Shown here: positions 21,221-38,830 of the stretch, piece after piece
How positions within the stretch are numbered: position 1 is the first letter of the stretch
Layout: every line of letters starts with the position of its first letter
Assembly (NCBI GenBank): GCA_030448005.1
Contig: JAUJNT010000005.1
Location: forward strand, 23,710-87,709
DNA from: Thermoleophilaceae bacterium
Lineage (GTDB): Bacteria > Actinomycetota > Thermoleophilia > Solirubrobacterales > Thermoleophilaceae
Length of the DNA stretch: 64,000 nucleotides
Direction: 5' to 3'
The notes under the pieces: generated by a model
Told to the model about the DNA's origin: nothing
Database searches by the model: none
Seen by the model: the letters and a program-made list of their open reading frames with translations, nothing else
Program-made: the position numbers and the translations under genes

Positions 21221-21414
21221 AGAGCGATCACCATAGAGAGGACCGCCGCGGGCGAGGCATCAGGTGGCTGCCTCGCACCCTCCCCCCGCAAGGATGTGAG
21301 CTGCCGAGCGCCCTGCTGTCAGCGGGGTAATCGCCGATCCGCGGTGCGGGGCTAAAGAAGAGCACTCCGCTTGCCGAATATGGGTGCAGGCAAGTAGAAG
21401 GGAGTGGTAACCAA

Positions 21415-21564
21415 ATGCCCCAGCCGGTTGGACTTGATACCCGCCACCAGCGGCTCGACCGCGAACGGCTGGAGGAAGACGCGCTGTTCAGGGCCTCTTG
21501 GTGGGCAGCATCGACCGCGTTCGCCGCGGTGACGTGGCTTTTTCTGATCACGCTGCTCTTCTAG
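21415..21564 (+). CDS. 49-aa tail-anchored small membrane peptide (paralog of 24973..25119)
   Basis: Below the ORF-track size cut-off. Sequence is MPQPVGLDTRHQRLDRERLEEDALFRASWWAASTAFAAVTWLFLITLLF. Similarity to the element copy begins at the SD (GGGAG) and start codon and ends at the stop codon. Confidence 0.5.
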   Translation: MPQPVGLDTRHQRLDRERLEEDALFRASWWAASTAFAAVTWLFLITLLF

Positions 21565-21671
21565 CCGCTCTCGCCCGACCAGGGCCACTAGAGAAGACGC
21601 CGGCAACGCGGTTTCTGACGAGCGCCGTTGGCGGAGTGTCCGGCTCGCCCGTCCGAACCTCCCCATCGCCC

Positions 21672-21731
21672 GCTCGCTACGCGGTGCCGTCCTACGGACG
21701 ACGCTCGCTGCGCTGTGCCGCTACGGACGAC
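21672..21731. repeat. Two tandem ~30-nt units (GCTCGCTACGCGGTGCCGTCCTACGGACGAC / GCTCGCTGCGCTGTGCCGCTACGGACGAC)
   Basis: Read directly. Lies in non-coding DNA between peptide A and the next gene. Confidence 0.7.
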
Positions 21732-21838
21732 CCCAGAGAGGACGCTGCCTCAGACGCCAGTCCCCCCTCCCCGCCACCCGCTTCGGACGCTCCCCAATTT
21801 TCATCAGCCCGCGACCGCCCGCACCATGGGCAGCTCAA

Positions 21839-22150
21839 CTAGCCGCCAATACTGGGGCGGTAGTCGACGACCTCGTAGTGCGAGATCTCGGGCGGCTCCG
21901 CCACTGCCCCGCTGTCCACCATCGCCTGCCGCGCCTGCTGAATCTCGGGATCTTGGAACGCCTGCTCCGAACCTTCATCGCTCTCCCAGAGATTGAGAAC
22001 GAGCATGCCTTCCGGCGTCCGCGCTGCCACATGAAGGAGGTTTCCGTAGTCCGGTGCCTTCCGTTCCATCACCGGATCTATGTGCTCGCGCTTAGCGGCG
22101 AGCAACTTCTCCGGGTCGCCGGAGCTGCGAATGATGGTGAGCCGTTGCAT
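21839..22150 (-). CDS. Hypothetical protein, possibly dimeric alpha/beta-barrel (ABM-like) fold
   Basis: ATG 22150 after GGGGAGG; 103 aa. The upstream part of ORF 21839..22333 looks non-coding. The fold call is a weak impression only. Confidence 0.5.
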   Translation of the reverse strand: MQRLTIIRSSGDPEKLLAAKREHIDPVMERKAPDYGNLLHVAARTPEGMLVLNLWESDEGSEQAFQDPEIQQARQAMVDSGAVAEPPEISHYEVVDYRPSIGG

Positions 22151-22378
22151 ATTGGCCTCCCCGTGAGTTGAGGGGCCGACCATAACGAGCGCAGCTATGG
22201 CGGTCAACCGTCCGAAGCGATGTCCGGACGACTTGGTCAGAAGCTGGTCCAATGCCGCGACTTCGCACCTAAAGGACGCTCGGGTTCTCCGCCCCCATCC
22301 CGGCCCTCCTCCGCGGGGGAAGGGTGCAGTCATCTTGTCCTCTTGCTCGGGGTGACGGCCGTGCTGGTGGAGGTGGCG

Positions 22379-22425
22379 CCAGTAGCTCCGCCTGGATTTG
22401 AACCAGGGACCTCACCATTATGAGT
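22379..22425 (-). repeat. attR: 47-nt copy of the 3' part of tRNA-Met (direct repeat of 32224..32270)
   Basis: CCAGTAGCTCCGCCTGGATTTGAACCAGGGACCTCACCATTATGAGT is identical at both sites. The flanks diverge immediately. Confidence 0.9.
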
Positions 22426-22493
22426 TGACCCTGGGAGTTGCGGACGTTTGCGGTTAGCCCGTTCAATCCCGCGCTGAGACTGGCGATACCGCA

Positions 22494-23645
22494 CTAGCTG
22501 GCCTTCTCCATCGGCTCGGCGTTTGCGGCTGTCCCCGGGTGTCCTGTTGCCCATCTGTTGCCCACCTTGACCGCTTCATCGAGGAAGGCCGCATCGCCCA
22601 CGCCGTCGTCCATCAGGTGGATGTACGTCCTGAGCGTGAAAGCCGGGTCAGCGTGCCCGAGCCAAGCCGATACCTGCTTCACGTCGCGGCCCGCCTCGAA
22701 CAGCAGGGAGGCGCACGTGTGCCTGAGCGTATGGAAGGTCGCCCACGGCACACCTGCCTGGTCGGTCGCCGGGTTGAACACTCGGCGGCGCAGGTTGGAG
22801 TCCGAAAGCGGCGTCCCTGCATCGGTCGTGAACACCCGGTCTGTCGGTTGCCTCCCGGCACTTAGCGTCCAGAGCCGGCGAGCCATCGCGGGGGAGAGGG
22901 GAACGTCTCGGCGGGAGCCGTCCGACTTGAGCTGCCCCACCTCCCCCCGACAGTCCTGGCGGCGGATCAGCAGCCTGGGGTGGTTGCCGAACTCCACGTC
23001 GCCCCACTCGAGCCCGATCGCCTCCGAGATCCTGAGCCCGCTGTGGGCGAGCAGCTCGAAGAACAGCCGCCAGTCCTCGGGTAGCGCCTCGAGCAGGCGT
23101 CCCAGCTCGGCGCGGGTGAGCGCCTTGGCGTCGGGCTCGTGGTCGGCTTCGTGGCGCTGCCCGCCGATCCTCACCTCCCTGGCCGGGTTGATTCTCAGCG
23201 CCCCGTCCTCCACTGCGGTGGCGAACATGGCCCGCAACGGGGCGAGCACCCGGCGAACAGTTCCGGGGCGAAGGCCCTTCGCCTCGAGCGTCGTCACGAA
23301 AGCCCGCACGTCCGGGGCCTCAACCTCAGACAGCTTGAGCCGCCCGAGGTGCGGATAGACCCACCGTTCTAGGTCTGCCCTGTACGAGCGCCTGGTGCGC
23401 TCTGAGAGCCCTCTGGCGGTGCGTCCGCGGTAGCCGTCGACCCATCGGCGGCAGTAGTCCTCGAGCGGCTCTCTGGAGGTTGGCCGGCGTTCGCCAGCGT
23501 CCCTCTGTCCCTTGGCCTCGCGGGCCTCATCGAGCGTGCGGTGAAACGACTTGTGCTGCTTCCCGCGGTGCCGCCAGACAACGACGTAACGACCACCCCG
23601 GCGATAGATGCCGGGGTGGCGGGTCTTTTCCATCTTGGCGGCCAT
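22494..23645 (-). CDS. int: Tyrosine-type site-specific integrase with N-terminal arm-binding (AP2-like) domain
   Basis: GIYRRGGRYVVVWRHRGKQHKSF N-domain. Catalytic-region motifs HSGLRISEA, HTLRHTCASLL, LGHADPAFTLRTYIHL. ATG 23645 after GGGAGGG; shares 1 nt with the upstream stop. Confidence 0.9.
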   Translation of the reverse strand: MAAKMEKTRHPGIYRRGGRYVVVWRHRGKQHKSFHRTLDEAREAKGQRDAGERRPTSREPLEDYCRRWVDGYRGRTARGLSERTRRSYRADLERWVYPHLGRLKLSEVEAPDVRAFVTTLEAKGLRPGTVRRVLAPLRAMFATAVEDGALRINPAREVRIGGQRHEADHEPDAKALTRAELGRLLEALPEDWRLFFELLAHSGLRISEAIGLEWGDVEFGNHPRLLIRRQDCRGEVGQLKSDGSRRDVPLSPAMARRLWTLSAGRQPTDRVFTTDAGTPLSDSNLRRRVFNPATDQAGVPWATFHTLRHTCASLLFEAGRDVKQVSAWLGHADPAFTLRTYIHLMDDGVGDAAFLDEAVKVGNRWATGHPGTAANAEPMEKAS

Positions 23646-23851
23646 CAGGCCTGCCCTCCCGCGGGCGCCACAACCGGGCGCCCGGCGGCCTGCGCGGCGT
23701 ACCGGTGACAGACGAGGAGATCCTCGCGATCCCCGGGAGGCAGGCCCGGGACCTTCAGGGCCTCGCCGAACGCATCCATCACGAGCCCCCACGCGCGTGA
23801 GGCGGCCGCGTCATCGACTGCGAGCGCCGGCACCACTGTGAGCGGCGCCAT
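23645..23851 (-). CDS. Hypothetical protein (68 aa), translationally coupled to int
   Basis: AAGGTGG SD 7 nt before ATG 23851. TGATG overlaps at both ends. No motif recognised. Confidence 0.5.
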   Translation of the reverse strand: MAPLTVVPALAVDDAAASRAWGLVMDAFGEALKVPGLPPGDREDLLVCHRYAAQAAGRPVVAPAGGQA

Positions 23852-24216
23852 CAGCTCGCCACCTTCTGTCCCTGCATGTGCCCATGGAACGCGAGCATGG
23901 ATCGCCCCTCGCGCTCGTCGCGTTCCGGGTCGGCGAGAAACTTTCGATCGGGCTTCGCCCGCTGCGAGTGGACGTCGGACATCAGCTCGTTACCCGCCTC
24001 CCAGGCGTGCTCGAGGAACGCAGCCAGCAGGTCGTCGGGCATTGAAACCTCGCCCGACCACGATCCGACTATCGGGTTGATCGGCAACGACTCTTCGATG
24101 CCCAGCAGCACGCGGAGCTGGCCGGCGTCCTCCGCTTCGCACGCCATCTCGAAGTGGCGTTGGTACAGGTAGCGCAGCCCGTCGACGTGCTCGGGGTGAA
24201 TGGTGATCGTCGCCAT
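23851..24216 (-). CDS. Hypothetical protein (121 aa)
   Basis: ATG 24216 lies 7 nt after GGGAGGTGG. TGATG junctions with both neighbours. No motif recognised. Confidence 0.55.
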   Translation of the reverse strand: MATITIHPEHVDGLRYLYQRHFEMACEAEDAGQLRVLLGIEESLPINPIVGSWSGEVSMPDDLLAAFLEHAWEAGNELMSDVHSQRAKPDRKFLADPERDEREGRSMLAFHGHMQGQKVAS

Positions 24217-24596
24217 CAGGCCACCTCCCTTTCCATCCACGCTTCCTCAAGGAGCCCCTTACCTGCGATCACCGCGTCGATCTTCTCCACCGTCTTGTTC
24301 CCGACGCCTTCCATCGCGGCCACCTCGTGGCGCGGCCAGCGCCGAACAAGCTCCTCGACCGTCTGAATGTCCTGCCCGGTGCAATGCTGGGAGCTAAGGC
24401 GGTCAAGGGTTTCGCCCTTGATGCCAACGTCGTGTAGGGGCGTCCCTCCCTTCTCGCGGCGGATCCCCGACTGCACGCGGGCTTCCAGCTCCCACAGGAG
24501 TGCCTTGTCCTTCCCCACCAAGTACATGAGGACGGCTTCGGTTATGTAGCGAACGTCCCTCAGCTCGCGGCGTAGGTGCTCAACTTCACTCGGCAT
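24216..24596 (-). CDS. Hypothetical DNA-binding protein with C-terminal helix-hairpin-helix resembling the RNA polymerase alpha CTD
   Basis: IQTVEELVRRWPRHEVAAMEGVGNKTVEKIDAVIAGKGL resembles the alpha-CTD HhH. SD GAAGGGAG. First gene of the four-gene int operon. Confidence 0.5.
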   Translation of the reverse strand: MPSEVEHLRRELRDVRYITEAVLMYLVGKDKALLWELEARVQSGIRREKGGTPLHDVGIKGETLDRLSSQHCTGQDIQTVEELVRRWPRHEVAAMEGVGNKTVEKIDAVIAGKGLLEEAWMEREVA

Positions 24597-24603
24597 TGCT
24601 GCT

Positions 24604-24626
24604 CCCTTCGGTTGGGCTCCGAAGGG
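24604..24626 (-). promoter_or_regulatory. 8-bp perfect hairpin whose 3' arm contains the SD of gene 24216..24596
   Basis: In the mRNA sense: CCCUUCGG-AGCCCAA-CCGAAGGG followed by AGCAGC-AUG. GAAGGGAG is the only SD-like sequence present. Confidence 0.4.
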
Positions 24627-24775
24627 ACCGGCTGGCGACGGGCTGCGCGGATAGTCTGCGCGGCGTCATCGGAGCTAGGACCTCCGGTGGCCACGGGGCG
24701 GGCCGTTCACGCGGCGCCGCCCCACTTGTATGGACGGGGCCCACCCTACGCCTCCTCGGCCCCGGCTGCAAGAGC

Positions 24776-24793
24776 GGTGTCGCATGCGACAGT
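24776..24793. promoter_or_regulatory. 18-nt motif GGTGTCGCATGCGACAGT containing a perfect 14-bp palindrome (copy 1 of 2)
   Basis: Identical 18-mer at 30935..30952. TGTCGCA/TGCGACA is a perfect dyad. Sits ~180 nt upstream of the int-operon start. Confidence 0.6.
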
Positions 24794-24972
24794 GCGGCCG
24801 AGCCTCATGCGGCCATGAACCCCGTTTTGAGTCAGGGGCGTCCGGGCATATTTGCTTCTGAGTTCGACTTCGGCGGGTCCGCTCCACGGTGGGGGCACGG
24901 AACTCAGGCCCGTCCCCTTGACGGACTTCGGCCGTGCAGGACGGTCCGGAGGACAGGAACGGAGACCTAACG

Positions 24973-25119
24973 GTGCCCCACCCCACTGCACTGGGTGCCC
25001 TCCAGCAACGACCCGCCCGGGAGCCGAAGGCGAGGCCGCTCTTCGTGGTCTCCTCGTGGGCGGCAATGATCGCGTTCTCGGCGGCGACGTGGCTCTTGCT
25101 CATCACGCTGCTCTTGTAG
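24973..25119 (+). CDS. 48-aa tail-anchored small membrane peptide, opposite strand to the element's operons
   Basis: GTG 24973 lies 8 nt after GGAG. VPHPTALGALQQRPAREPKARPLFVVSSWAAMIAFSAATWLLLITLLL aligns end to end with the 21415..21564 product. Confidence 0.5.
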   Translation: MPHPTALGALQQRPAREPKARPLFVVSSWAAMIAFSAATWLLLITLLL

Positions 25120-25158
25120 CCTGCCGCGCCGTCAGCGGTCATCGTCACTCCTCGTCTG

Positions 25159-25359
25159 TCAGCGCCGAGCGCCACCGCTCGAGCTCGAGCGCTGCCGCGG
25201 GGAACGCCCCGCGTCCGAGTGCTGCTCCTCGTCATCTATGGACACGGCGCGGCCGGCAACCCTTTGGGATTGCGCTCGCTGGGTCCGCTGCTTCGGCGCT
25301 TCCGCCTCGTCAGTCAAGACGACGTAGGCGCGGCCGGGACATCTGGGCATTCCTAACAC
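25159..25359 (-). CDS. Hypothetical protein (66 aa)
   Basis: GTG 25359 lies 6 nt after AAGGAG at the end of the upstream gene. Polar, low-complexity tail. Weak coding look. Confidence 0.35.
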   Translation of the reverse strand: MLGMPRCPGRAYVVLTDEAEAPKQRTQRAQSQRVAGRAVSIDDEEQHSDAGRSPRQRSSSSGGARR

Positions 25360-25362
25360 TTG

Positions 25363-26079
25363 CTACTCCTTCCGATCGAAGCTAAGTCCGTACTCGATTT
25401 GGGATAGCTGCCAGGTGGGGAGCCGCATACCGGGGGGAAGCTGGGGCTTGAGGCTCACCGCCGGGTCGAAGACAATCCGTTCGTATGAGAGGACGATGCA
25501 GTGGTCGAGGAAGGGGTTGTCGGCGTTCCCCATCTCCACGCCGACAGCGGCCATAGCGGCCTCATCGACGCGCCCCCCGATAACGCCCACCCATCGGTCG
25601 CGATCGACTGGTACGGCGTCGTGGATCACGAGCCGCAAGCCGCGGCCACTCAGCCACTGCTCGATTCTCGCCCAGGAGTCGCGGGAGATCTCCTCCGGAT
25701 CCTCGCCAGCACGTACGCGCTGATCTAGATGCAGATCGGGCACCTGGTCCACCGGGATCTGTGTTGCCGTGGCGAGGGCCACCCGGAGACAACCATCCGG
25801 GCGGGTCGGATGCATGCAGTAGCCGACCCCGTCGTCCCCCAGCTGCACGACCGGGTGTTGGGGCTGCGACGCCCAAATCTCGCGAGCGTGCGCGCCCGGT
25901 GTGTGGGCAAGTGCGCCGGGGGCAGTGAGCGGGTGGCTCGGTTTCGCACCTGCCGCACTTTGGCTGCAACGCTCGGCCTGGCGGCGCTCAGCCTTGCGCC
26001 GCTCACGGCGCTCAGCCTTACGGCGCTCAGCCTCGCGGCGGTCGGCCTTACTGCCCTTCTTGCGGGAGTGGCGGCTCAC
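25363..26079 (-). CDS. Hypothetical protein: basic AERRK-repeat N-terminus plus C-terminal domain with Cys/His pair (possible papain-like peptidase)
   Basis: GTG 26079 forms a GTGA overlap with the HNH stop. [24 protein letters not shown] repeat. Candidate catalytic residues in [12 protein letters not shown] and FLDHCIVL. Confidence 0.55.
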
Positions 26080-26357
26080 CACTCCCGACTCCAAACTCGC
26101 GGGGGGCACACGTCGCTGCCGGGGGATGTCCGGGGCGAGCGCCGGCCGGAAGTTGCCCTGTTGCAGCCGGAGTGCTCTGGCCCCGTATATCGGGAGCGGT
26201 CGCGGTCATCGTGGCCGAGGTCCCACCGCTCGCCGGGGAGGATCGGCAGACCGCACCGTGCGCACCGGGCCTTTCCCGCAGCGACTAGCGGCTCAAGCCG
26301 CTTCCGTAGCTGCTGGTGGCGGCTGCCGTAGCCCCTCTTTGCCGTATCGCCGGCCAT
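26076..26357 (-). CDS. HNH endonuclease (actinophage-type)
   Basis: [14 protein letters not shown]...[20 protein letters not shown]...GPEHSGCNR is the classic HNH/zinc-finger layout. Confidence 0.8.
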
Positions 26358-26473
26358 CTAGCGGACCTTTCCGCGGCGGGGAGAGAGATCCCTGACGGGG
26401 CGGGGGTCAACGCGGAGGTGCCCTTCGAGGCCCCCGGACCCCCCCTCCCGCAAACTGCGACTCTGCTCGCGGC

Positions 26474-26770
26474 TCATGCTTCCGTCGCCCCGTGGATGGC
26501 GTCGGCCAGCTCGCTCACCACTCGCTCGTACAGGTCGCCGGTCGTGGGGTCGCCGTCCAGGGCTCGCTCGAGCACGGCGGGAAGCTCGGCACGGTTAAGC
26601 CCGTGGGCTATTGCGGCTTCGACGGCCGGACGCAACAGATCCTTGACCTTTGCGAAAAGTGCGAAGCGCTCCTCTAGCGTCCACTGCTCGAGGGGGTGGC
26701 GTTGCTTCACCTGCACCGGGGAGAACCGCACGCGGGCCGGCGCGGGGAAGCCACCTCCTCTGCGGTTCAT
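26474..26770 (-). CDS. Hypothetical protein (98 aa)
   Basis: ATG 26770 in an ATGA overlap with the upstream stop. Helical, no motif. Confidence 0.5.
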   Translation of the reverse strand: MNRRGGGFPAPARVRFSPVQVKQRHPLEQWTLEERFALFAKVKDLLRPAVEAAIAHGLNRAELPAVLERALDGDPTTGDLYERVVSELADAIHGATEA

Positions 26771-27159
26771 AGTCGCCACGTCGGGCACCTCCCCGATCCG
26801 CGGTCGCCGAGGTCCCATGGCTTGCGGGCGGGCGCCATACGACGTGTGCCGGTGTCGGGTCGGCTTCGGGCCCGGGCGACCATCAGCCTCATCTCGGACG
26901 CGGTGAGCTTGTCTTGTGGGTCGGCGTTCGTGAAGAGCTCGGGCCGCTGACGGACCGCGGGGTGATCGGGTGCAAAGCGGTCGCGCCTCGGGTGCAGACG
27001 CTCGCGCCGGCCATCGACCGTGACCGTGACCGGGGCTTTCGGGGTGACCATTCCCTCACCCTGCAGCGTGCGCCGCCTCTTGCGGCTGGGAGCGGGCGTG
27101 GCCGGGGGTTGAGGGTTTGTCGGTAGGTGAGCCGCGGCTATCTCGACACGGCCCCTCAT
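26767..27159 (-). CDS. Hypothetical protein (130 aa)
   Basis: ATG 27159 in an ATGA overlap with the stop of the frame-shifted upstream gene. Basic/proline-rich N-terminus. Confidence 0.45.
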   Translation of the reverse strand: MRGRVEIAAAHLPTNPQPPATPAPSRKRRRTLQGEGMVTPKAPVTVTVDGRRERLHPRRDRFAPDHPAVRQRPELFTNADPQDKLTASEMRLMVARARSRPDTGTRRMAPARKPWDLGDRGSGRCPTWRL

Positions 27160-27561
27160 CGCTTCACCGTCGCCCTCGGATCCACGAATGCGTCGGGTGC
27201 GAGCCGCACCAGCTCGGCGTCCCGCGGCACGACCGTACCCACGGGAAGCTGCGTAAGGCGCTTGGCCCCGGCCTCCCACACTCGGAGCGGCTTACGGGTC
27301 ACGAGGGCATCGAGGGTTCTCAGTGCCTCGTAGACGACCGCGTCGACTTCGGTTGCAACCTCGTCCTGGCCGGCGGGTCAGCTGCGCCGGCCTGATCGGC
27401 GTGCCGTCCGGGACCCAGTGCTCGAAGTGCTCGCGCACGAGCGGGTCATCGCCGCGACGGCGCTCGCCAGCGCGGAGCGTGGTTTGGAGGTCGAAGCTAA
27501 TCGAGTCGCGGCACTGGTACACGGCGTTCGGGTCGGGCTTGCTCTTGGTCTTGGTTGGCAT
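27156..27561 (-). pseudogene. Hypothetical gene split by a +1 frame change near 27365-27377
   Basis: ATG 27561 lies 6 nt after GGAGAA. The first ~65 codons look coding, then GC3 collapses. The +1 frame continues as PAGQDEVATEVDAVVYEALRTLDALVTRKPLRVWEAG...ATVKR, with high GC3, and ends in ATGA coupling at 27156. Confidence 0.5.
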
Positions 27562-27657
27562 CTTCACTTCTCCTTTGGGTTCAGGCTTGCGGTCGAAGCC
27601 TCGACCACGGCTTGAGGGTTTGTCGGTATCTGAGCGTCACGGCCTCGGCTCGAGTTC

Positions 27658-27927
27658 TCACGGTCGCTTCGCCCCTCCGCTCGCCACGTACTGGCGCAAC
27701 TCGGCAGGGTCGAAAATCAAGCGGGAGCCGTCGCGGTGGACGGGGATCCGGCCTGCGGACACGAGGCTGTAGATCCTGGAGGTGGGGCATGAGAGAAACT
27801 CGGCAGCGCCGGCCACGTCGAGGTAGCCGGCGGGCTCGGCCTGGTGGTCGGCCAAGCGCTCGAGCACACGGTTTGCGACGGCGTCCACGAGCGCGTCGGG
27901 GAGGTCGATCCAAAGTCCCTGGCTCAC
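27658..27927 (-). CDS. HTH_17 / excisionase-family DNA-binding protein
   Basis: LDVAGAAEFLSCPTSRIYSLVSAGRIPVHRDGSRLIFDPAELRQYV. GTGA overlap with the primase/helicase stop. Confidence 0.75.
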   Translation of the reverse strand: MSQGLWIDLPDALVDAVANRVLERLADHQAEPAGYLDVAGAAEFLSCPTSRIYSLVSAGRIPVHRDGSRLIFDPAELRQYVASGGAKRP

Positions 27928-29885
27928 GCGACCACCTCGGCGGCAAGAGGGCGTCGGCAGGTCTGGCAGAAGTCCGGGCCTTCGGCTCGAGGGGAGCGGG
28001 CAGGCACTCGGCAGGTGCAGTGGTCAAGGTCGCCACCAGCCCCTATCCCTTTGGCGGTGGCGGCCTTGGCGGCCTTGGCGGTGTTGTTGGCGGAGTTAAA
28101 AGGCTCTACAGAGGGAAGACCGACAAGACCGCCAACCGCAGAGCTAGAGGAGGGGGAGGCGGGCTTGAGTTCCCACTGCCGACCGCTCGAGGTCTTAGAT
28201 GCCTTGGCTCCGACCCGCGACTTGGCACGCTCCACTGTCCGCCACGAGAGGCCGGCGTCAGCCGCCGCGGTCTTCAACCTGGGCGTCGGGATCGGCCCGT
28301 CTGCAAGCTCGGCCCGTAGGAAGTCGGCTGCCTCATCTCGGGCGGTGCGCTCCTCGGAGTTCGCCGGCTGCTCGAGTAGGTCGCGGGCGGTCTGCTGGGT
28401 TTCATCGAGCAGGATCACCCGGCTGGTCGCGAGGGTCTGGCCGTCGTCGCTCAGGACTCGGCGCGGCTCGATGCGGGCGCGGAGGGATGGGGCGAGCGGA
28501 CCGACGTTGCACTTGGCGTGGGCGAGCACCCTGTAGGGGCCGCTCTCGCCCTCTGGGTCCTCTGGGTCGCGGGCGAACGCGAGCACGCTGCGGGCCGATG
28601 CGGTGAACCCAACCGACCCGCTGACCCGTGAGAGAACATCGGTTGTGTCTCCCTTGTTGAGGTGCATGACGCCGAGCACCGCGATGTTGTGGTCACTCGC
28701 CAGCCGTGCGAGTGGCGCGAGAACGCGCCGCACGTCCTGGTCGCGGTGGGCGTTCACGTCGCCGCCGAGGTAGCCCACCAGTGGGTCGAGCACTAGCCAT
28801 CGGGCATCAGCTTTGACAACGGCGTCGGCGAGCTTGGGGAGGTCTTCGGGCAGGGTGAGCATTCCGGGGACCCGTTCGCCCTCGAGCCGGTCCACAACCT
28901 CGAGGATGGACACACGCTCAAGGTCGGCCCCCGCGGCCATTAGGCGCGGCAGGAGGGTGGTGTGCGGCGAGTCCTCCCCGCTGGCGATAACGACGCGCGC
29001 GTGTGTGCCCTCGAGGTCGCCGGCAAGCTCGCCGCGGGTCGCCTGGGCGAGCAGCTCAATCGTCAGGCTCGACTTGCCGAGCCCCTCCTTGCCGGCGAGG
29101 ATCGTGACCAATCCTTGTGGCACCCGATCCTTGAACACCCAGCTTGGTGAACACGGCTCGATCGAGGACGCCGCCCGCAGCACAACCTCTCGCCCGCCAT
29201 CCGCCTGCGAGGCAACCGGGGCGGTTTCAGGTGCGGCACCGTTCACTGAGAGGGCAGCCTTGGCTCGGTGCAGCGCTTCGAGCGGCTTCGCCTCGGCGAT
29301 CAGCGCCTCGAGCGCTGCAGCGGGCGCATCGGCAGCGCGCGCCGGGTCGCTTGCTGCGACAACGAGTACGTCGGCAAGATCCTGGCCGTCCGGTATCGGC
29401 AGGATCAGCGGCCGGATGCCGGCGGCCTCGAGCGCCTCGGAGAACTTGGCGGCGGCCTTGCGTCCAGGCTCGTCGCCATCCATCGCCAGCAGCGCTGCCA
29501 TCGTGCCGGTGTCGGCCAGCGCGGCGGCCAGCCTCGCGGGCGGGTAGCCCGTGCCGGGTACGGCGGCTATCCCATAGGCGCGCAGTGCGGCTATCTCCGC
29601 GGTCGCCGGCAGGTGTGTCGCTGCGGCGACCGCGTCGGGCTCCCCTTCGCAGACGAGCACCGTCGGGTCATTCTGCGGCTCGACAACCCACCAGAGCGCG
29701 AGCGGCGAGCCGGCGGGTTGAAGCGTTCGGCTCCCCTCGAGCGGCCGGCGGCGGCCCCCGGGGTAGGTCAGCGTGCCCGGCGGCTGTTCGCTCACGCCGA
29801 GGGCCGCCGCTATCTCCGGGTCGATCGCGTGGCTGGCGAAGTAGTCGAGCGCCGCGGTAGAGAACTTGGTCTGCGTCGCGCTCAC
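27924..29885 (-). CDS. Replication protein: Toprim domain + RepA/AAA_25-like ATPase + C-terminal Cys4-type zinc ribbon
   Basis: VLVCEGEPDAVAAA and LLAMDGDEPGRKAA (Toprim). Walker A LAGKEGLGKSSL, Walker B-like WLVLDPL. Tail HCTC...CQTC. GTG 29885 chosen; ATG 30002 would add an Arg-rich junk-like leader. Confidence 0.8.
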   Translation of the reverse strand: MSATQTKFSTAALDYFASHAIDPEIAAALGVSEQPPGTLTYPGGRRRPLEGSRTLQPAGSPLALWWVVEPQNDPTVLVCEGEPDAVAAATHLPATAEIAALRAYGIAAVPGTGYPPARLAAALADTGTMAALLAMDGDEPGRKAAAKFSEALEAAGIRPLILPIPDGQDLADVLVVAASDPARAADAPAAALEALIAEAKPLEALHRAKAALSVNGAAPETAPVASQADGGREVVLRAASSIEPCSPSWVFKDRVPQGLVTILAGKEGLGKSSLTIELLAQATRGELAGDLEGTHARVVIASGEDSPHTTLLPRLMAAGADLERVSILEVVDRLEGERVPGMLTLPEDLPKLADAVVKADARWLVLDPLVGYLGGDVNAHRDQDVRRVLAPLARLASDHNIAVLGVMHLNKGDTTDVLSRVSGSVGFTASARSVLAFARDPEDPEGESGPYRVLAHAKCNVGPLAPSLRARIEPRRVLSDDGQTLATSRVILLDETQQTARDLLEQPANSEERTARDEAADFLRAELADGPIPTPRLKTAAADAGLSWRTVERAKSRVGAKASKTSSGRQWELKPASPSSSSAVGGLVGLPSVEPFNSANNTAKAAKAATAKGIGAGGDLDHCTCRVPARSPRAEGPDFCQTCRRPLAAEVVA

Positions 29886-30023
29886 GTCGTGGCCCCCTTG
29901 GCGCGCTCGCGCAGGAAGATGGCCAGCTCGCGCAGGGCCGCACGGCGGCCGGCGAGAGGCTTGGCAGCGAGCACGTCGAGCTGGTCGGCAAGCTCGAGCC
30001 ACGGGTCGCGTCGTGGTGGCGGG

Positions 30024-30290
30024 CTAGGATTCGTCACGTCGCCCCGTCCCGGGCGAAGTTGTGACGAGGCCCGGAGTGGTGTCCGGGTCTCTGTCGTCTA
30101 TGGAGCGATCTAGGAAGGCCTCCACGTCCGCCGGCCGAAACCGTGCGAGCCGGCCGATGTGAAGGACAGGGAGCTCGCCGCGGGTGACGAGTCGTGCCAC
30201 CGTGCGAGGGGACACCCCGAGCAGCTCGGCGACTTGTTCGCTTGTCAGGACTAGCCGATCCCGACCGTAGACTGCCTGGGCGTGCCTCAT
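30024..30290 (-). CDS. HTH_17 / excisionase- or AlpA-like DNA-binding protein
   Basis: LTSEQVAELLGVSPRTVARLVTRGELPVLHIGRLARFRPADVEAFL. First gene of the leftward replication operon. Confidence 0.75.
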   Translation of the reverse strand: MRHAQAVYGRDRLVLTSEQVAELLGVSPRTVARLVTRGELPVLHIGRLARFRPADVEAFLDRSIDDRDPDTTPGLVTTSPGTGRRDES

Positions 30291-30521
30291 GCAGCCAGTG
30301 TGGTCAGACAGGCCCCGCCCGACAACGAGCGGTTTGACCCTAAAACGCTCACCCACCTAGTCGCCGCTGCGGCCGAGCAGGGCCGCCCGGCGTGGAGTTT
30401 GCCGGCCCCGGTGCGGCGACTTCCGGACGGGTTGTTGGTTCCCCAACTGGATCGGGTTGTGGCTCGCCTGGGCAATGGCCCGCTCGTGTTGACTTCGCCC
30501 GACAAGGTGACTCCGGCGCCT

Positions 30522-30923
30522 ATGAGGCAGAAGCCAAAAGACGAAACCGTTCTCGCGCTCGGCACCAACTGGGAGCCAGCGATCAAGCTCGCGTGGGACG
30601 CCGCCGTCAAAAAGTCACATGTACGAACCGAGCTCTGCGGCCTCTACGCAGCGGCGGCCTATGACCTGGCCGGCGTCACCATCGAAGAGCTAACAGAGGA
30701 TCTCTCTTACGCCAGTCGCACGATCCAGGACGTGGTAAGCCGTGGTCGCACGCTCTGGGCCGGATTAGCCGCTTGGCCGTGGTGGTACTTCGCCCGCTTC
30801 GGTGGCCAAGACCCTCCCGGACGGCCGTTTCGCGGCTGGCGCACCGACGAGCGCATGCACCTCACCTTCGCGGCTTGGGAATCGGGGATTGTGCCGAACT
30901 ACGCAGCGACCCGCCGCCCGTGA
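30522..30923 (+). CDS. Hypothetical HTH-containing regulator, divergent from the leftward operon (start uncertain; ORF open from 30282)
   Basis: GVTIEELTEDLSYASRTIQDVVSRGRTLW looks like an HTH. One of only two plus-strand genes in the element. A start at 30282 would overlap the divergent gene. Confidence 0.4.
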   Translation: MRQKPKDETVLALGTNWEPAIKLAWDAAVKKSHVRTELCGLYAAAAYDLAGVTIEELTEDLSYASRTIQDVVSRGRTLWAGLAAWPWWYFARFGGQDPPGRPFRGWRTDERMHLTFAAWESGIVPNYAATRRP

Positions 30924-30934
30924 GCGGCGCGCGG

Positions 30935-30952
30935 GGTGTCGCATGCGACAGT
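30935..30952. promoter_or_regulatory. 18-nt motif GGTGTCGCATGCGACAGT (copy 2 of 2)
   Basis: Identical to 24776..24793. Lies 12 nt after the stop of the plus-strand regulator. Confidence 0.6.
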
Positions 30953-30999
30953 TCAGTCATACCGTCGCAGCGCGCGGCCCCGCTGACCGGGCTTGAGGC

Positions 31000-31191
31000 T
31001 TATGCCGCCGCCCGCCATGCGGCCGCCGTGTCCTCGAGCGCCTCGAGCCACTCCCGCTTTTCGTCCGGCGGGAGCGCCGCGAGGGCCGCGGTCCATGCGG
31101 CAGCGAAGTCCACGCCAGCTTGCCGTTGCTGCTCAAGCTGGTGGCGCACCTTCACAGTCGAACGCACGGCCGGAATGTTGCCCGGGTTCAC
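31000..31191 (-). CDS. Hypothetical small helical protein (possible third gene after the TA pair)
   Basis: In-frame GTG 31191 within ORF 31000..31299. Tail VDFAAAWTAALAALPPDEKREWLEALEDTAAAWRAAA. Weak. Confidence 0.25.
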   Translation of the reverse strand: MNPGNIPAVRSTVKVRHQLEQQRQAGVDFAAAWTAALAALPPDEKREWLEALEDTAAAWRAAA

Positions 31192-31208
31192 GGACAGGTT
31201 CGACCTGC

Positions 31209-31508
31209 CTAGTCGGCCTCGAGGGGTTTCAACTGAACCCACCCCAACTCGCACCTTCGCTCCGGTTCGTGGATTCGGAAGAAGACTCGTATCTCCCACC
31301 CGTCGAGACGATCGATCGTGCGGACGATTCGCTGCCGCTCATCCACCGATGGATACGAGACGCCCAGCGGGTTCCTGGCGAGCGCTTTTTCGATAGCGGC
31401 CATATGAGCCTCAGGCCGCGTGAGCGCCTCCTGCGCCTTCGCCCACGTCTTCTTGAACTCATCGCGCCGATCGAGCGTCCACAGCCGGCGCTCGTCCGGC
31501 ACCCACAC
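31209..31508 (-). CDS. Putative toxin partner of the Panacea-domain protein; RelE/ParE-like pattern (inferred)
   Basis: 99 aa, GTG start 6 nt after the PanA-like stop. Helical N-half, then GWEIRVFFRIHEPERRCELGWVQ beta-strand pattern as in ParE/RelE toxins. Confidence 0.5.
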   Translation of the reverse strand: MWVPDERRLWTLDRRDEFKKTWAKAQEALTRPEAHMAAIEKALARNPLGVSYPSVDERQRIVRTIDRLDGWEIRVFFRIHEPERRCELGWVQLKPLEAD

Positions 31509-31514
31509 GGGGGC

Positions 31515-32057
31515 TTACCAGCCGAGCTGCTGCCCGACCTCGCGCCCCATATCGATTGCGTCCCGCGGTGGCGGCTGCATCGAGATCAACGCTGTCTCGT
31601 ATGGGATCTCTTCCCCGAGTTCGGTCAGGTTCCAGCCGGCCGAAACCTGATGCGATATCTCGCTGATCGTGGTTGCATCGAAGCGTCGATACAGCTCGAG
31701 CACCTCGTCAACAATCTCGAGTTCCTCCGGAGTGAAGACGCCGAGGTCAGGAGGGCGCTGCGCCACCGTCACCTTCTGGGTGTAGATCATCCTCTCGCGA
31801 CGCTCGACGTTCACCGCGCCCTCATGCTGAAGGGCATCCTGTACAGGCAGGAGCCGCTTGGGGGCAGGGCCCTTCTCGAGGTTCTGATAGGCCGCACCCG
31901 TGATCGGCTCACCCAGAACCGCGTAGGCGTGGAAGTCGCAGAAGAACAGCAGCTTGTTTAGCTTGGTCGCACCGAAGGTCGGATCGCTGGCTGAGCGATC
32001 CGCGAGCAGAATCAACAGCTCCCGAAACTTGCCTTCGTCGTACCGAATCCCCTCCAT
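31515..32057 (-). CDS. Panacea / DUF4065 (SocA/GepA-like) domain protein, putative antitoxin
   Basis: ATG 32057 directly after GGGAGGAGCT. ATKLNKLLFFCDFHAYAVLGEPITGAAYQNLEKGPAP matches the KLQKLLYF...G.P....Y....GPV signature. The rest of ORF 31515..33446 is read-through across a tRNA. Confidence 0.8.
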   Translation of the reverse strand: MEGIRYDEGKFRELLILLADRSASDPTFGATKLNKLLFFCDFHAYAVLGEPITGAAYQNLEKGPAPKRLLPVQDALQHEGAVNVERRERMIYTQKVTVAQRPPDLGVFTPEELEIVDEVLELYRRFDATTISEISHQVSAGWNLTELGEEIPYETALISMQPPPRDAIDMGREVGQQLGW

Positions 32058-32193
32058 AGCTCCTCCCAGGGTACGCCGTCCGCAAAGAAGACCCTCCAAC
32101 CAGGAGCGTAGTCGTCGCCTCGGCCAGCGCCCTGACAAGCGCCCTTGAGTTCGGGCAGTTGCCCAATCGGTTGCCCTCAGGCGCAGCGGCGGA

Positions 32194-32225
32194 GGGGCTA
32201 AAGACCACGATTTCGCTCTAGCCCC
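32194..32225 (-). terminator. Hairpin GGGGCTA-N18-TAGCCCC immediately 3' of tRNA-Met, contributed by the element arm
   Basis: 7-bp perfect stem read directly, overlapping the att core by 2 nt. The large loop makes its function uncertain. Confidence 0.3.
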
Positions 32226-32227
32226 AG

Positions 32228-32300
32228 TAGCTCCGCCTGGATTTGAACCAGGGACCTCACCATTATGAGTGGTGCGCTCTAACCGCTGAGCTACGGAGCC
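32228..32300 (-). tRNA. tRNA-Met (anticodon CAU, elongator-type)
   Basis: GGCUCCG UA GCUC AGCGGUUA GAGC G CACCA CUCAUAA UGGUG AGGUC CCUGG UUCAAAU CCAGG CGGAGCU A. The anticodon stem lacks the initiator GGG/CCC. No CCA encoded. Confidence 0.9.
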
Positions 32301-38482: not shown

Positions 38483-38494
38483 CCGTGGGGAGCG

Positions 38495-38527
38495 GGCCGG
38501 GGGCTCCCGCCCCCGGAGCCCCCGGCC
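38495..38527 (+). terminator. 13-bp perfect GC hairpin after aspS
   Basis: GGCCGGGGGCTCC-N7-GGAGCCCCCGGCC, 13 nt after the stop. No U tract. Confidence 0.55.
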
Positions 38528-38830
38528 GCTCTTGCCCTACGGCCTCCCGTGGCAGGTCCGCTTGCCCGGGCCCTGGCGAGGGTGACCCACGGCTCTCTAA
38601 AGCCCGCCGCGAACGCTCGGTTGCCTGCTAGCGTTCGCTCCAAGCTCTAGCTTGTACGCCAGCCGGCCCATCACGTTGAGCCAACACCACCGGGATGGGA
38701 GTCCGACTCGAGGCGTGCCAGGCGTTCGCCGCCAGGTCACGCTTCGGAGGACACCCACGCTTGCTACACGCAGGCCCAACTCCCGAGTCGGCAGCGGCAA
38801 GCTGGAGCTGATACTCCGTAAGGTGGTCGC

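Follow-up and report, generated by a model that had tools for sequence, protein, structure and literature searches.

A 64,000-nt stretch of DNA from a Thermoleophilaceae bacterium (GCA_030448005.1, contig JAUJNT010000005.1, positions 23,710–87,709 of the forward strand), here called the window and numbered from its first nucleotide, contains a 9,845-bp (9.85-kb, measured between repeat starts) element inserted in a tRNA-Met gene. The element is discrete, carries modules of phage ancestry, belongs to a conserved family with circular relatives, and lacks genes for autonomous transfer. The explanation that we favor, with moderate confidence, is that it is an intact, tRNA-Met-integrated, helper-dependent phage satellite, which resembles the phage-inducible chromosomal islands (PICIs) in its mode and lies outside the defined satellite families. 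Induction, a helper phage, a cos site and packaging are what we infer from these features. A satellite with P4-like or PICI-like architecture had already been suggested in a first-pass annotation of this DNA. The anatomy of the element, the type of its HNH endonuclease, the small terminase subunit (TerS)-like gene found in the corresponding slot of a sister element, L169, and the circular relatives speak for a satellite, while the argument for helper dependence is indirect, and the element does not fit the core-gene definitions of P4-like elements and PICIs.

Boundaries and gene layout of the element

The element is bounded by direct repeats. A repeat search showed that positions 22376–22425 match positions 32221–32270 over 50 nt with one mismatch, and that the perfect part of this match is 47 nt long (22379–22425 and 32224–32270). 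A 26-nt core of the repeat is present in exactly two copies in the 64-kb window, as compared to an expectation of 0.00 in shuffled sequence. When the tRNA boundary given by Rfam is used, the repeat consists of the last 43 nt of tRNA-Met plus 4 nt, as the first-pass annotation had described it. Only one tRNA-Met(CAT) was called by ARAGORN (32227–32300, minus strand; Rfam boundary 32228–32300), and it is located at the right repeat, which agrees with the earlier view that the right copy completes the tRNA while the left copy is an orphan. Farther to the left, no additional degraded att copy was found at up to 3 mismatches. Duplication of a tRNA 3′ end as direct repeats is characteristic of elements that target tRNA genes by means of a tyrosine recombinase. 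The integrase gene of the element is located 69 nt from attL, and two HTH_17 proteins are candidates for the recombination directionality factor; the profile matches listed below substantiate the previous assignment of all three proteins. The G+C content is slightly lower inside the element (0.64–0.70) than in the flanks (0.70–0.72).

The features of the element are listed from the tRNA side, which is also the direction in which gene order is described throughout. About 20 called open reading frames (ORFs) were compared with the profiles of Pfam, PHROGs, NCBIfam and PADLOC.

32227–32300, minus: tRNA-Met(CAU), the integration target (ARAGORN; Rfam RF00005, 71.5 bits)
32224–32270, no strand: attR, the right direct repeat, which is the 3′ part of the intact tRNA
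31515–32078, minus: SocA/Panacea-domain antitoxin (PF13274, E 6e-17; phrog_1281, E 3e-13); start uncertain
31209–31508, minus: g99b, candidate toxin, a 99-aa ORF named by its position directly 3′ of the Panacea antitoxin; no family match
31007–31184, minus: another block that is conserved in the sister element (L169 3803–3979; 92% nt identity, about 100 nt identical)
30282–30923, plus: g213p, a 213-aa ORF, candidate regulator, divergent from the operon; among plus-strand ORFs only this one has coding-like composition (GC by codon position 0.69/0.54/0.74)
30024–30356, minus: HTH_17 or MerR/AlpA-like regulator, the first gene of the leftward operon (PF12728, E 1.5e-14; phrog_66, E 5e-11)
27924–29885, minus: replicase (Rep), Toprim plus AAA_25 (RepA/DnaB-like) with a Cys-rich C terminus (PF13481, E 3e-29; Toprim_2, E 3e-7; phrog_10729, E 7e-37)
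27658–27927, minus: HTH_17 protein, probable excisionase (xis), directly after rep (PF12728, E 7e-8; phrog_66)
27609–27635, minus: 27-nt repeat, copy 2, upstream of g91 (repeat search)
27292–27567, minus: g91, a small ORF (58% identity to a frame downstream of rep in the metagenome locus L005)
27106–27132, minus: 27-nt repeat, copy 1, promoter-like or operator-like, upstream of g94 (repeat search)
26767–27051, minus: g94, a small ORF, the conserved C-terminal part of a mechanically called 170-aa ORF (56% identical to a frame that follows rep in L005)
26474–26818, minus: g114, with coding-like base composition; no match in any library or in cultured phages
26076–26357, minus: HNH endonuclease of the actinophage terminal, packaging-associated type (phrog_1808, E 2e-17)
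25363–26109, minus: g248, a protein with a Cys/His core and a basic, coiled N terminus (10 homologues)
25159–25359, minus: g66, a small ORF inside the hyper-conserved block (92–97% aa identity to a 64-aa L169 ORF, depending on the alignment)
24830–25360, minus: hyper-conserved block of about 530–560 nt that immediately follows g248 and contains g66 as well as the beginning of an ORF with an unstable frame
24216–24596, minus: g126, with a weak helix-hairpin-helix match in its C-terminal part (PF14520 HHH_5, E 0.028, below the curated cut-off); no other match
23851–24240, minus: g129, likely start at 24216 (about 121 aa); 47% identity to a 121-aa L169 protein, ratio of nonsynonymous to synonymous substitutions (dN/dS) 0.29
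23645–23851, minus: g68, a small ORF between g129 and int whose start and stop overlap its neighbors (GC at third codon positions 0.84)
22494–23645, minus: tyrosine integrase, int (PF00589, E 4e-24; phrog_1, E 2e-71; 52% aa identity to the L169 integrase)
22379–22425, no strand: attL, the left direct repeat, an orphan copy of the tRNA-Met 3′ 43 nt plus 4 nt, in which ARAGORN finds no tRNA

All but one of the convincing genes are located on the minus strand, and several neighbors overlap, which gives the element the layout of one leftward operon. In the control region the HTH_17 regulator that heads this operon stands opposite the divergent g213p, in which no domain could be recognized: this ORF had no family match in Pfam, PHROGs, NCBIfam or PADLOC, and its single-sequence AlphaFold2 (AF2) model was unusable (pLDDT, the model confidence score, of 37). 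The int frame is open to 23792, and its likely start at 23645 was placed by alignment with the L169 integrase. The scans with NCBIfam and PADLOC did not add any annotation to the element proteins, and about ten ORFs were without a detectable homologue in the four profile libraries, which is the number of small unknowns that had been estimated before. For g129, a search of PDB and of phage sequences, in addition to these libraries, also gave no match.

The Panacea-type toxin–antitoxin pair proposed in the first-pass annotation was supported on the side of the antitoxin, which has the expected domain, while the adjacent 99-aa ORF, without a family match, could not be confirmed as its toxin partner. 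The presence of defense cargo was considered and rejected, as PADLOC gave no match other than a weak DnaG-like match in Rep. The 178-nt block at 31007–31184 is conserved in otherwise unrelated surroundings, and it overlaps the C-terminal half of a small ORF (…QLEQQRQAGVDFAAAWTAALAALPPDEKREWLEALEDTAAAWRAA). The two copies of the 27-nt repeat are 89% alike and share an identical 17-nt core (TACCGACAAACCCTCAA, minus strand; chance expectation 0.01). From each copy it is about 55 nt downstream to a ribosome-binding site and start codon, in one case those of g94 (ATG) and in the other those of g91, and the repeat looks like a duplicated promoter or operator. Scans for sigma-70 promoters and for terminators gave results at chance level. 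The palindromic motif AGCGCTCGAGC was rejected as a signal of the element, because it is common across the whole window.

The HNH endonuclease, g248 and the sister element

The type of the HNH endonuclease connects the element to phage DNA packaging. Although Pfam does not detect this protein, a tblastn search matched it to 154 actinophage records (phages of Mycobacterium, Arthrobacter and Gordonia) with a best identity of 64–66%, which together with the PHROGs match corroborates its description as an actinophage-type HNH. In all of the records listed, no more than about 500 nt separate the match from the right genome end. Phage Butters encodes its homologue as the last gene, gp66, which ends 183 nt before the right end of the genome, while the left end of the same genome begins with gp1 (147 aa), followed by the large terminase subunit TerL (gene 2), portal, protease and the major head protein. 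The packaging HNH of HK97-type phages (HK97 gp74) reportedly has the same arrangement (Kala et al. 2014, cited in PMC10085698). These positions, last before cos in actinophages, agree with the proposal of the first-pass annotation that HNH nucleases of this kind are accessories of cos packaging. The gene of the element is homologous to HNH genes near cos and terminase, and no cognate terminase is present beside it, so the terminase on which this HNH acts would have to come in trans. Hence, as judged from its gene content, the element appears to carry a terminase co-factor without a terminase.

A sister element, L169, was found by means of a g248 homologue that is 87% identical to that of the window element. 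It is 11,687 bp (11.7 kb) long, is located in another genome (GCA_030447205.1, JAUJPH010000001.1; L169 2300–14029), and is bounded by perfect 43-nt repeats that correspond to the 3′ end of a tRNA-Lys(CTT). Starting from the tRNA end it contains genes for a Fic protein, an XRE regulator, an 89-aa ORF, a Toprim plus DUF3631 primase, an HTH_17 protein, ORFs of 65, 89 and 199 aa, a 183-aa TerS-like protein (phrog_4102, E 9e-9), the g248 and g66 homologues, ORFs of 116, 119 and 121 aa, a 63-aa ORF, and the integrase. The identities to the window element are 74% for the HTH_17 protein, 47% for the 121-aa ORF (g129), which is adjoined in L169 by its 119-aa paralogue, and 52% for the integrase. The 63-aa gene is at the position of g68, with no detectable similarity to it. 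In the cargo slot next to the tRNA, L169 encodes the Fic-domain protein and the window element the Panacea module. The type of the replicase, the tRNA target and the packaging gene differ between the two elements, while the layout is kept, and the TerS-like gene of L169 occupies the slot of the HNH gene. The dN/dS values obtained from this comparison were 0.25 for g248, 0.28 for xis, 0.29 for g129 and 0.40 for int, which shows that these four genes are maintained by purifying selection and are not decaying.

The g248 gene follows a packaging gene in every context in which it was found, that is after HNH in the window element and in the locus L171, and after the TerS-like gene in L169. The alignment of ten homologues showed that D96, C98, H154, N189, H194, C195 and D206 are invariant. 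The protein had no match in Pfam, PHROGs, NCBIfam, PADLOC or PDB sequences. Its AF2 model was of moderate quality (pLDDT 68, predicted TM score (pTM) 0.58). A Foldseek comparison of this model with PDB gave nothing significant, with papain-like peptidases at the top (best match staphopain, E 0.36), and the comparison with BFVD returned only uncharacterized phage proteins (E 3e-4 to 4e-3). The invariant Cys98, His154 and His194-Cys195 are consistent with the Cys/His part of the "Cys/His peptidase-like" description in the first-pass annotation, while the peptidase fold was not supported at a significant level. A Cys/His hydrolase would be no more than a reasonable guess for g248.

Just downstream of g248, the block at 24830–25360 is 97–100% identical to L169 at the nucleotide level, with a perfect run of about 290 nt. 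This is in contrast to the neighboring g248, for which the synonymous divergence (dS) is 0.30, and to int and xis, which are far more diverged. The longer ORF in the block is broken by a 1-nt indel, which places it in different frames in the two elements, and hence the block is not obviously coding over its whole length. A non-coding RNA was considered and rejected, as there was no Rfam match, the folding z-scores were −0.35 and +0.05, and the covariation term was unfavorable. A small membrane peptide encoded on the plus strand (24934–25119) found no support either, as substitutions showed no third-position bias and the aa identity to L169 was 96% on the minus strand versus 85% on the plus strand. 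A search of IMG/VR with the motif of the block gave no match. An attractive candidate explanation is that the block is a cis-acting site (cos/pac or an origin of replication) common to two satellites of one helper, but it is equally possible that it is a recent recombination tract.

The replicase, absent genes and more distant relatives

The first-pass annotation had described the replicase as a fusion of Toprim, a RepA-like ATPase and a zinc ribbon. The first two parts are supported by profile matches (Toprim_2/3, E 3e-7; AAA_25, E 3e-29; and phrog_10729, annotated as DNA polymerase/primase, E 7e-37), while the zinc ribbon corresponds to a C-terminal CxC...CxxC motif that was read by eye and to which no profile gave support. 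This Toprim plus AAA_25 architecture differs from the Prim-Pol/D5 type of the PICI Pri-Rep module. Close relatives of Rep are few (29 proteins at E ≤0.001) and originate from Thermoleophilia and soil metagenomes. Homologues of the helicase domain were found in 85 actinophage records (Mycobacterium and Microbacterium phages) versus 12 plasmid records, the latter including two small Streptomyces plasmids of about 22 kb that encode an AAA_25 protein 33% identical to Rep.

The genes that define conjugative elements and prophages were not detected in the element. Pfam and PHROGs scans of the called ORFs revealed no capsid, portal, terminase, lysis, FtsK/TraB or relaxase gene, and a six-frame Pfam scan of 102 stop-to-stop ORFs of at least about 60 aa, from which the annotated genes were set aside, gave nothing relevant. 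The only Walker A motif across the six frames of the element is located in Rep. These results uphold the earlier list of functions not seen (capsid, portal, terminase, tail, FtsK/TraSA-like translocase and relaxase), and the profile search over all ORFs that had been proposed as a check likewise gave no capsid, terminase or FtsK-like gene. The TerL, capsid, protease and tape-measure proteins of related loci, used as tblastn queries, had no match anywhere in the window. Regarding the actinomycete integrative and conjugative elements (AICEs), neither the translocase (FtsK/SpoIIIE-type TraB/TraSA; no FtsK_SpoIIIE match in the six-frame Pfam scan) nor the accessory proteins Spd, Nudix (Pif) and GntR (KorSA) were matched. 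For integrative and conjugative elements (ICEs) and integrative and mobilizable elements (IMEs), Pfam gave no relaxase, coupling protein or type IV secretion system, and the prophage set (TerL, portal, major capsid, tail, lysis) was not matched either. The readings as AICE, ICE or prophage fail because these defining genes are absent.

A related possibility is an integrative plasmid-like or mobilizable element, which would excise, replicate by means of its own Rep and be moved in trans by the FtsK-like translocase of a conjugative element resident in the same actinomycete, acting on an unrecognized clt site, or would be inherited vertically. AICEs such as pSAM2 and SLP1 are reportedly also built on Int, xis and rep within about 10 kb, the two Streptomyces plasmids contain a related AAA_25 protein, and cis-acting clt sites are unrecognizable from sequence. 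On the other hand, genes for FtsK/TraB, a relaxase, Spd, Nudix (Pif) and GntR (KorSA) are all absent, the element has a single Walker A motif, and the relatives of Rep are far more common in phages than in plasmids. Additionally, the accessory genes of the element and its relatives that can be named all belong to phage packaging or morphogenesis (HNH, TerS, TerL, protease, tape measure, capsid). Hence, we consider an integrative plasmid-like element quite improbable.

The element could also be thought of as a minimal autonomous virus, or as an element borne by vesicles or gene transfer agents (GTAs), with particle proteins hidden among the small ORFs. About ten of these ORFs have no detectable homologue, and the g248 fold matches only uncharacterized phage proteins, which would leave room for such proteins. 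However, with 248 aa the largest unknown protein does not reach the length of a TerL, portal or HK97-fold capsid protein, genes for membrane or lysis functions were not detected, and both HNH and Rep belong to families of tailed phages. This explanation is therefore very hard to sustain.

The order of rep followed by an HTH_17 gene recurs in L001, L003, L006, L010, L164/L165, L168 and L169, and some of these loci combine it with other phage-derived genes. In L001, a metagenome-assembled genome (MAG) of Solirubrobacterales, a Rep with 47% identity is encoded downstream of tRNA-Met in the order rep, HTH_17, unknown ORF, RusA, TerL, and this locus appears prophage-like, with the same orientation as in the window element. 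L164 and L165 (Logan SRR29078148 and SRR29078248) come from two samples and are circularly permuted relative to each other; L165 has a 30-nt terminal overlap, as we infer would be expected of a circular contig in a k=31 assembly. This 9.57-kb (about 9.6-kb) element encodes Rep (P0013, 56% identical), HTH_17, a head maturation protease, a 574-aa tape measure and an integrase. The presence of a short tape measure without other recognizable tail genes in an element of this size is an oddity.

Another circular contig, L168 (Logan SRR22405863; 8.06 kb), contains a lone TerL together with Rep (P0015, 40% identical, Toprim plus AAA_25), HTH_17 and an integrase. Just 3′ of its int gene are 45 nt that read as a tRNA-Met from the anticodon loop (CUCAUAA) to the acceptor end, and this stretch is a tRNA-Met(CAU)-like attP. 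Relative to int, the strand of this tRNA-like half is the reverse of that in the window element. In L010, a metagenome locus with a 52% identical Rep, the rep, xis and int genes are contiguous. At L010 4168–5127 the integrase match covers only the first approximately 140 residues and overlaps an opposite-strand 319-aa ORF, whose sequence reads like that of a zinc-ribbon (ISXO2/IS1595-like) transposase.

Head genes are present in two further loci. L171 5855–8836 (JGI Ga0633471_0008245) encodes a capsid, two small ORFs, HNH and the g248 homologue. Its capsid is 30% identical to the major head protein of Butters, and the locus is about 1.6 kb from host nucS; no terminase or portal gene was seen upstream of the capsid. 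The contig ends soon after this stretch. The 10.2-kb L152 (IMGVR_UViG_3300001592_000297) is a more distant relative, with a Rep 36% identical to that of the window element. Next to this Rep it contains genes for a split major head protein, protease, portal, HNH, TerS, TerL and head closure, which make up a complete set like that of capsid-forming PICIs (cfPICIs). The small elements with a related Rep thus range from capsid-forming ones to those with a single packaging gene. A spectrum of this kind has been described for phage satellites (PMC10085698; PMC10690885).

The satellite reading and its relation to known systems

Several observations weigh against a helper-dependent satellite. No helper phage was identified, and no cos or pac site was demonstrated. 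No TerS, Ppi, Rpp, Cpm or capsid-size-redirection gene could be recognized in the element, which has only HNH, and this HNH could be a relic or a homing-type nuclease. No function could be assigned to g248, g126, g129, g114, g91, g94 and g213p; among these, g248, g129, g126 and g114 match no cultured phage, and g248 is also absent from IMG/VR. The circular relatives share with the element only rep, HTH_17 and int, with rep at 40–56% identity, and their phage-derived genes are at different positions. Additionally, neither a clean empty site nor an attP junction of this element was found. The EttA homologues come from sources classified as Thermoleophilaceae. The closest relatives retrieved by means of them, L172 and L174, are 95% identical in ettA at the nucleotide level, and their locus consists of PD40, a 97-aa gene, HATPase_c_2 and EttA, without tRNA-Met. 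Their collinearity with the window extends from about 9.3 kb as far as ettA and the 97-aa gene (21845–22144), beyond which the PD40 gene follows. It seems from this comparison that the locus was rearranged in one of the lineages, and hence the mobility of the window copy rests on its perfect repeats and intact genes.

The same locus showed traces of other events. A 576-nt segment (21269–21845) just outside attL replaces the HATPase_c_2 gene (anti-sigma kinase-like), which in L172 and L174 is located between the 97-aa gene and ettA. This segment holds a partial copy of the hyper-conserved block, 78% identical, at approximately 21416–21591, and it may have been left behind by an earlier related element or by recombination. 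About 17 kb away, 65 nt at 38487–38551 of the window are 89% identical to the sequence immediately 3′ of ettA in L172 and L174, which could be either a short dispersed repeat or a trace of rearrangement.

The fragment outside attL also bears on the possibility that the element derives from a prophage or a capsid-forming satellite and is now defective, having lost the head and packaging module after HNH by deletion and retained HNH as a leftover. It would still integrate, excise and perhaps replicate, but would no longer be transferred. Such a loss would agree with the gene order in phages, where cos, TerS, TerL, portal, protease and capsid come after HNH, and with the presence of TerL or complete head modules in relatives with a related Rep. 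The rearranged locus with its element-derived fragment, and the ORF of the hyper-conserved block that differs in frame between the two elements, point in the same direction. However, the element has kept perfect repeats as well as intact int, xis and rep genes. Moreover, the compact layout is kept in an independent element, in another tRNA and another genome, with dN/dS values of 0.25–0.40, and the finding of HNH or TerS in one slot is more easily explained by module exchange than by two parallel deletions. Hence, a defective remnant is unlikely in our view, and an intact satellite is the explanation that we retain.

As a satellite, the element could have the following cycle. Helper infection or induction, the presumed signal, would de-repress the leftward operon headed by the HTH_17 regulator (30024–30356). 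Int and the HTH_17 protein at 27658–27927 would excise the element as a circle, which the Toprim/AAA_25 replicase would amplify. The late module, from g91 to g129 and including HNH and g248, would then redirect the helper terminase, so that satellite DNA would enter capsids made by the helper. In this step HNH may serve as a terminase co-factor, as in HK97-type cos phages, and the hyper-conserved block downstream of g248 would be the best candidate for the packaging site in cis. After injection into a new cell, Int would integrate the element into tRNA-Met.

A more specific version of this explanation is that these elements form a new Thermoleophilia satellite lineage, in which an exchangeable "hijack slot" between xis and int is combined with g248 as the effector and the block as a common cos/pac site. 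The slot would contain one helper-matched gene in each element: HNH in the window element, TerS in L169, and TerL, protease with tape measure, or capsid in the others. The approximately 560-nt block would be the shared cos/pac site for a common helper of two otherwise diverged satellites. Taken jointly, these proposals are tentative, and we regard the full combination as possible but doubtful.

The size of about 10–15 kb without structural or lysis genes, which is typical of PICIs, is also that of the element. It is similar in this respect to the reportedly cos-type PICIs such as SaPIbov5, with which it also shares an integrase at one end, a regulator, its own replicase, and the lack of capsid, tail and lysis genes, and packaging by a cos plus HNH-terminase machine would be expected in both. 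It differs in that the HNH of the SaPIbov5 system comes from the helper phage, while the window element encodes its own, and in that its replicase is Toprim plus AAA_25 and not a Prim-Pol/D5-type Pri-Rep. Additionally, it has no recognizable Stl/Str pair, Ppi, Cpm or TerS, its host is a member of Thermoleophilaceae, and the homology is limited to generic domains. In cfPICIs the HNH is located within a packaging module (PMC10690885; PMC10085698). Of the cfPICI set (capsid, protease, portal, connectors, TerS, TerL) the window element has no component other than the shared HNH.

The phiRv1/phiRv2-type elements of Mycobacterium have been classified by SatelliteFinder as putative PICIs (PMC10085698). 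Being integrated actinobacterial elements of about 10 kb in which an integrase and a primase/replicase are combined with a few phage genes for head or packaging functions, they provide the nearest precedent in the phylum, a likeness that is one of gene content. These elements carry capsid, protease and terminase genes, while the window element has only HNH; L164/L165 and L168 resemble them more. With the P4-like satellites the element has in common an integrase, an AlpA-type HTH protein, a large primase-helicase and, as proposed here, dependence on cos, and HNH is present in some P4-like elements (PMC10085698). In contrast, PHROGs and Pfam gave no matches in the window element to the P4-like set (Psu, Delta, Sid, Epsilon, alpha-type primase), and the architecture of its replicase is different.

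The AICEs, reportedly exemplified by pSAM2 and SLP1, are similar as actinobacterial elements of 9–24 kb that are located in tRNA genes, carry int, xis and rep, excise and replicate, while the FtsK/SpoIIIE-type Tra protein used for AICE transfer, as well as Spd, Pif and Kor, are absent from the window element. The Streptomyces satellites MulchRoom and MiniFlayer carry full capsid and packaging sets with HNH, and no replicase (PMC10690885). They share with the window element an Actinomycetota host and HNH, but are its opposite in the rest, as it has its own replicase and no capsid genes. On the basis of its genes, the element therefore lies outside the core-gene definitions of P4-like, PICI, cfPICI and PICI-like element (PLE) satellites.

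Satellites with experimental support have been described almost entirely in Proteobacteria and Firmicutes, and the Actinomycetota are represented by MulchRoom, MiniFlayer and computational calls such as the phiRv1/phiRv2-like elements (PMC10690885; PMC10085698). No satellite of Thermoleophilia was found in the literature searched. Family models of the SatelliteFinder type would miss the element, and so would searches for AICEs and ICEs, as it does not pass their tests for core genes. To search soil viromes for helpers, one could use as handles the g248 family, the hyper-conserved block and the tRNA-Met attP. If the satellite reading is true, phage satellites would be extended to Thermoleophilia, an abundant and poorly cultured soil class, and a lineage that pairs different single packaging genes with related genes for Rep, excisionase and integrase would provide a natural comparison of hijack strategies.

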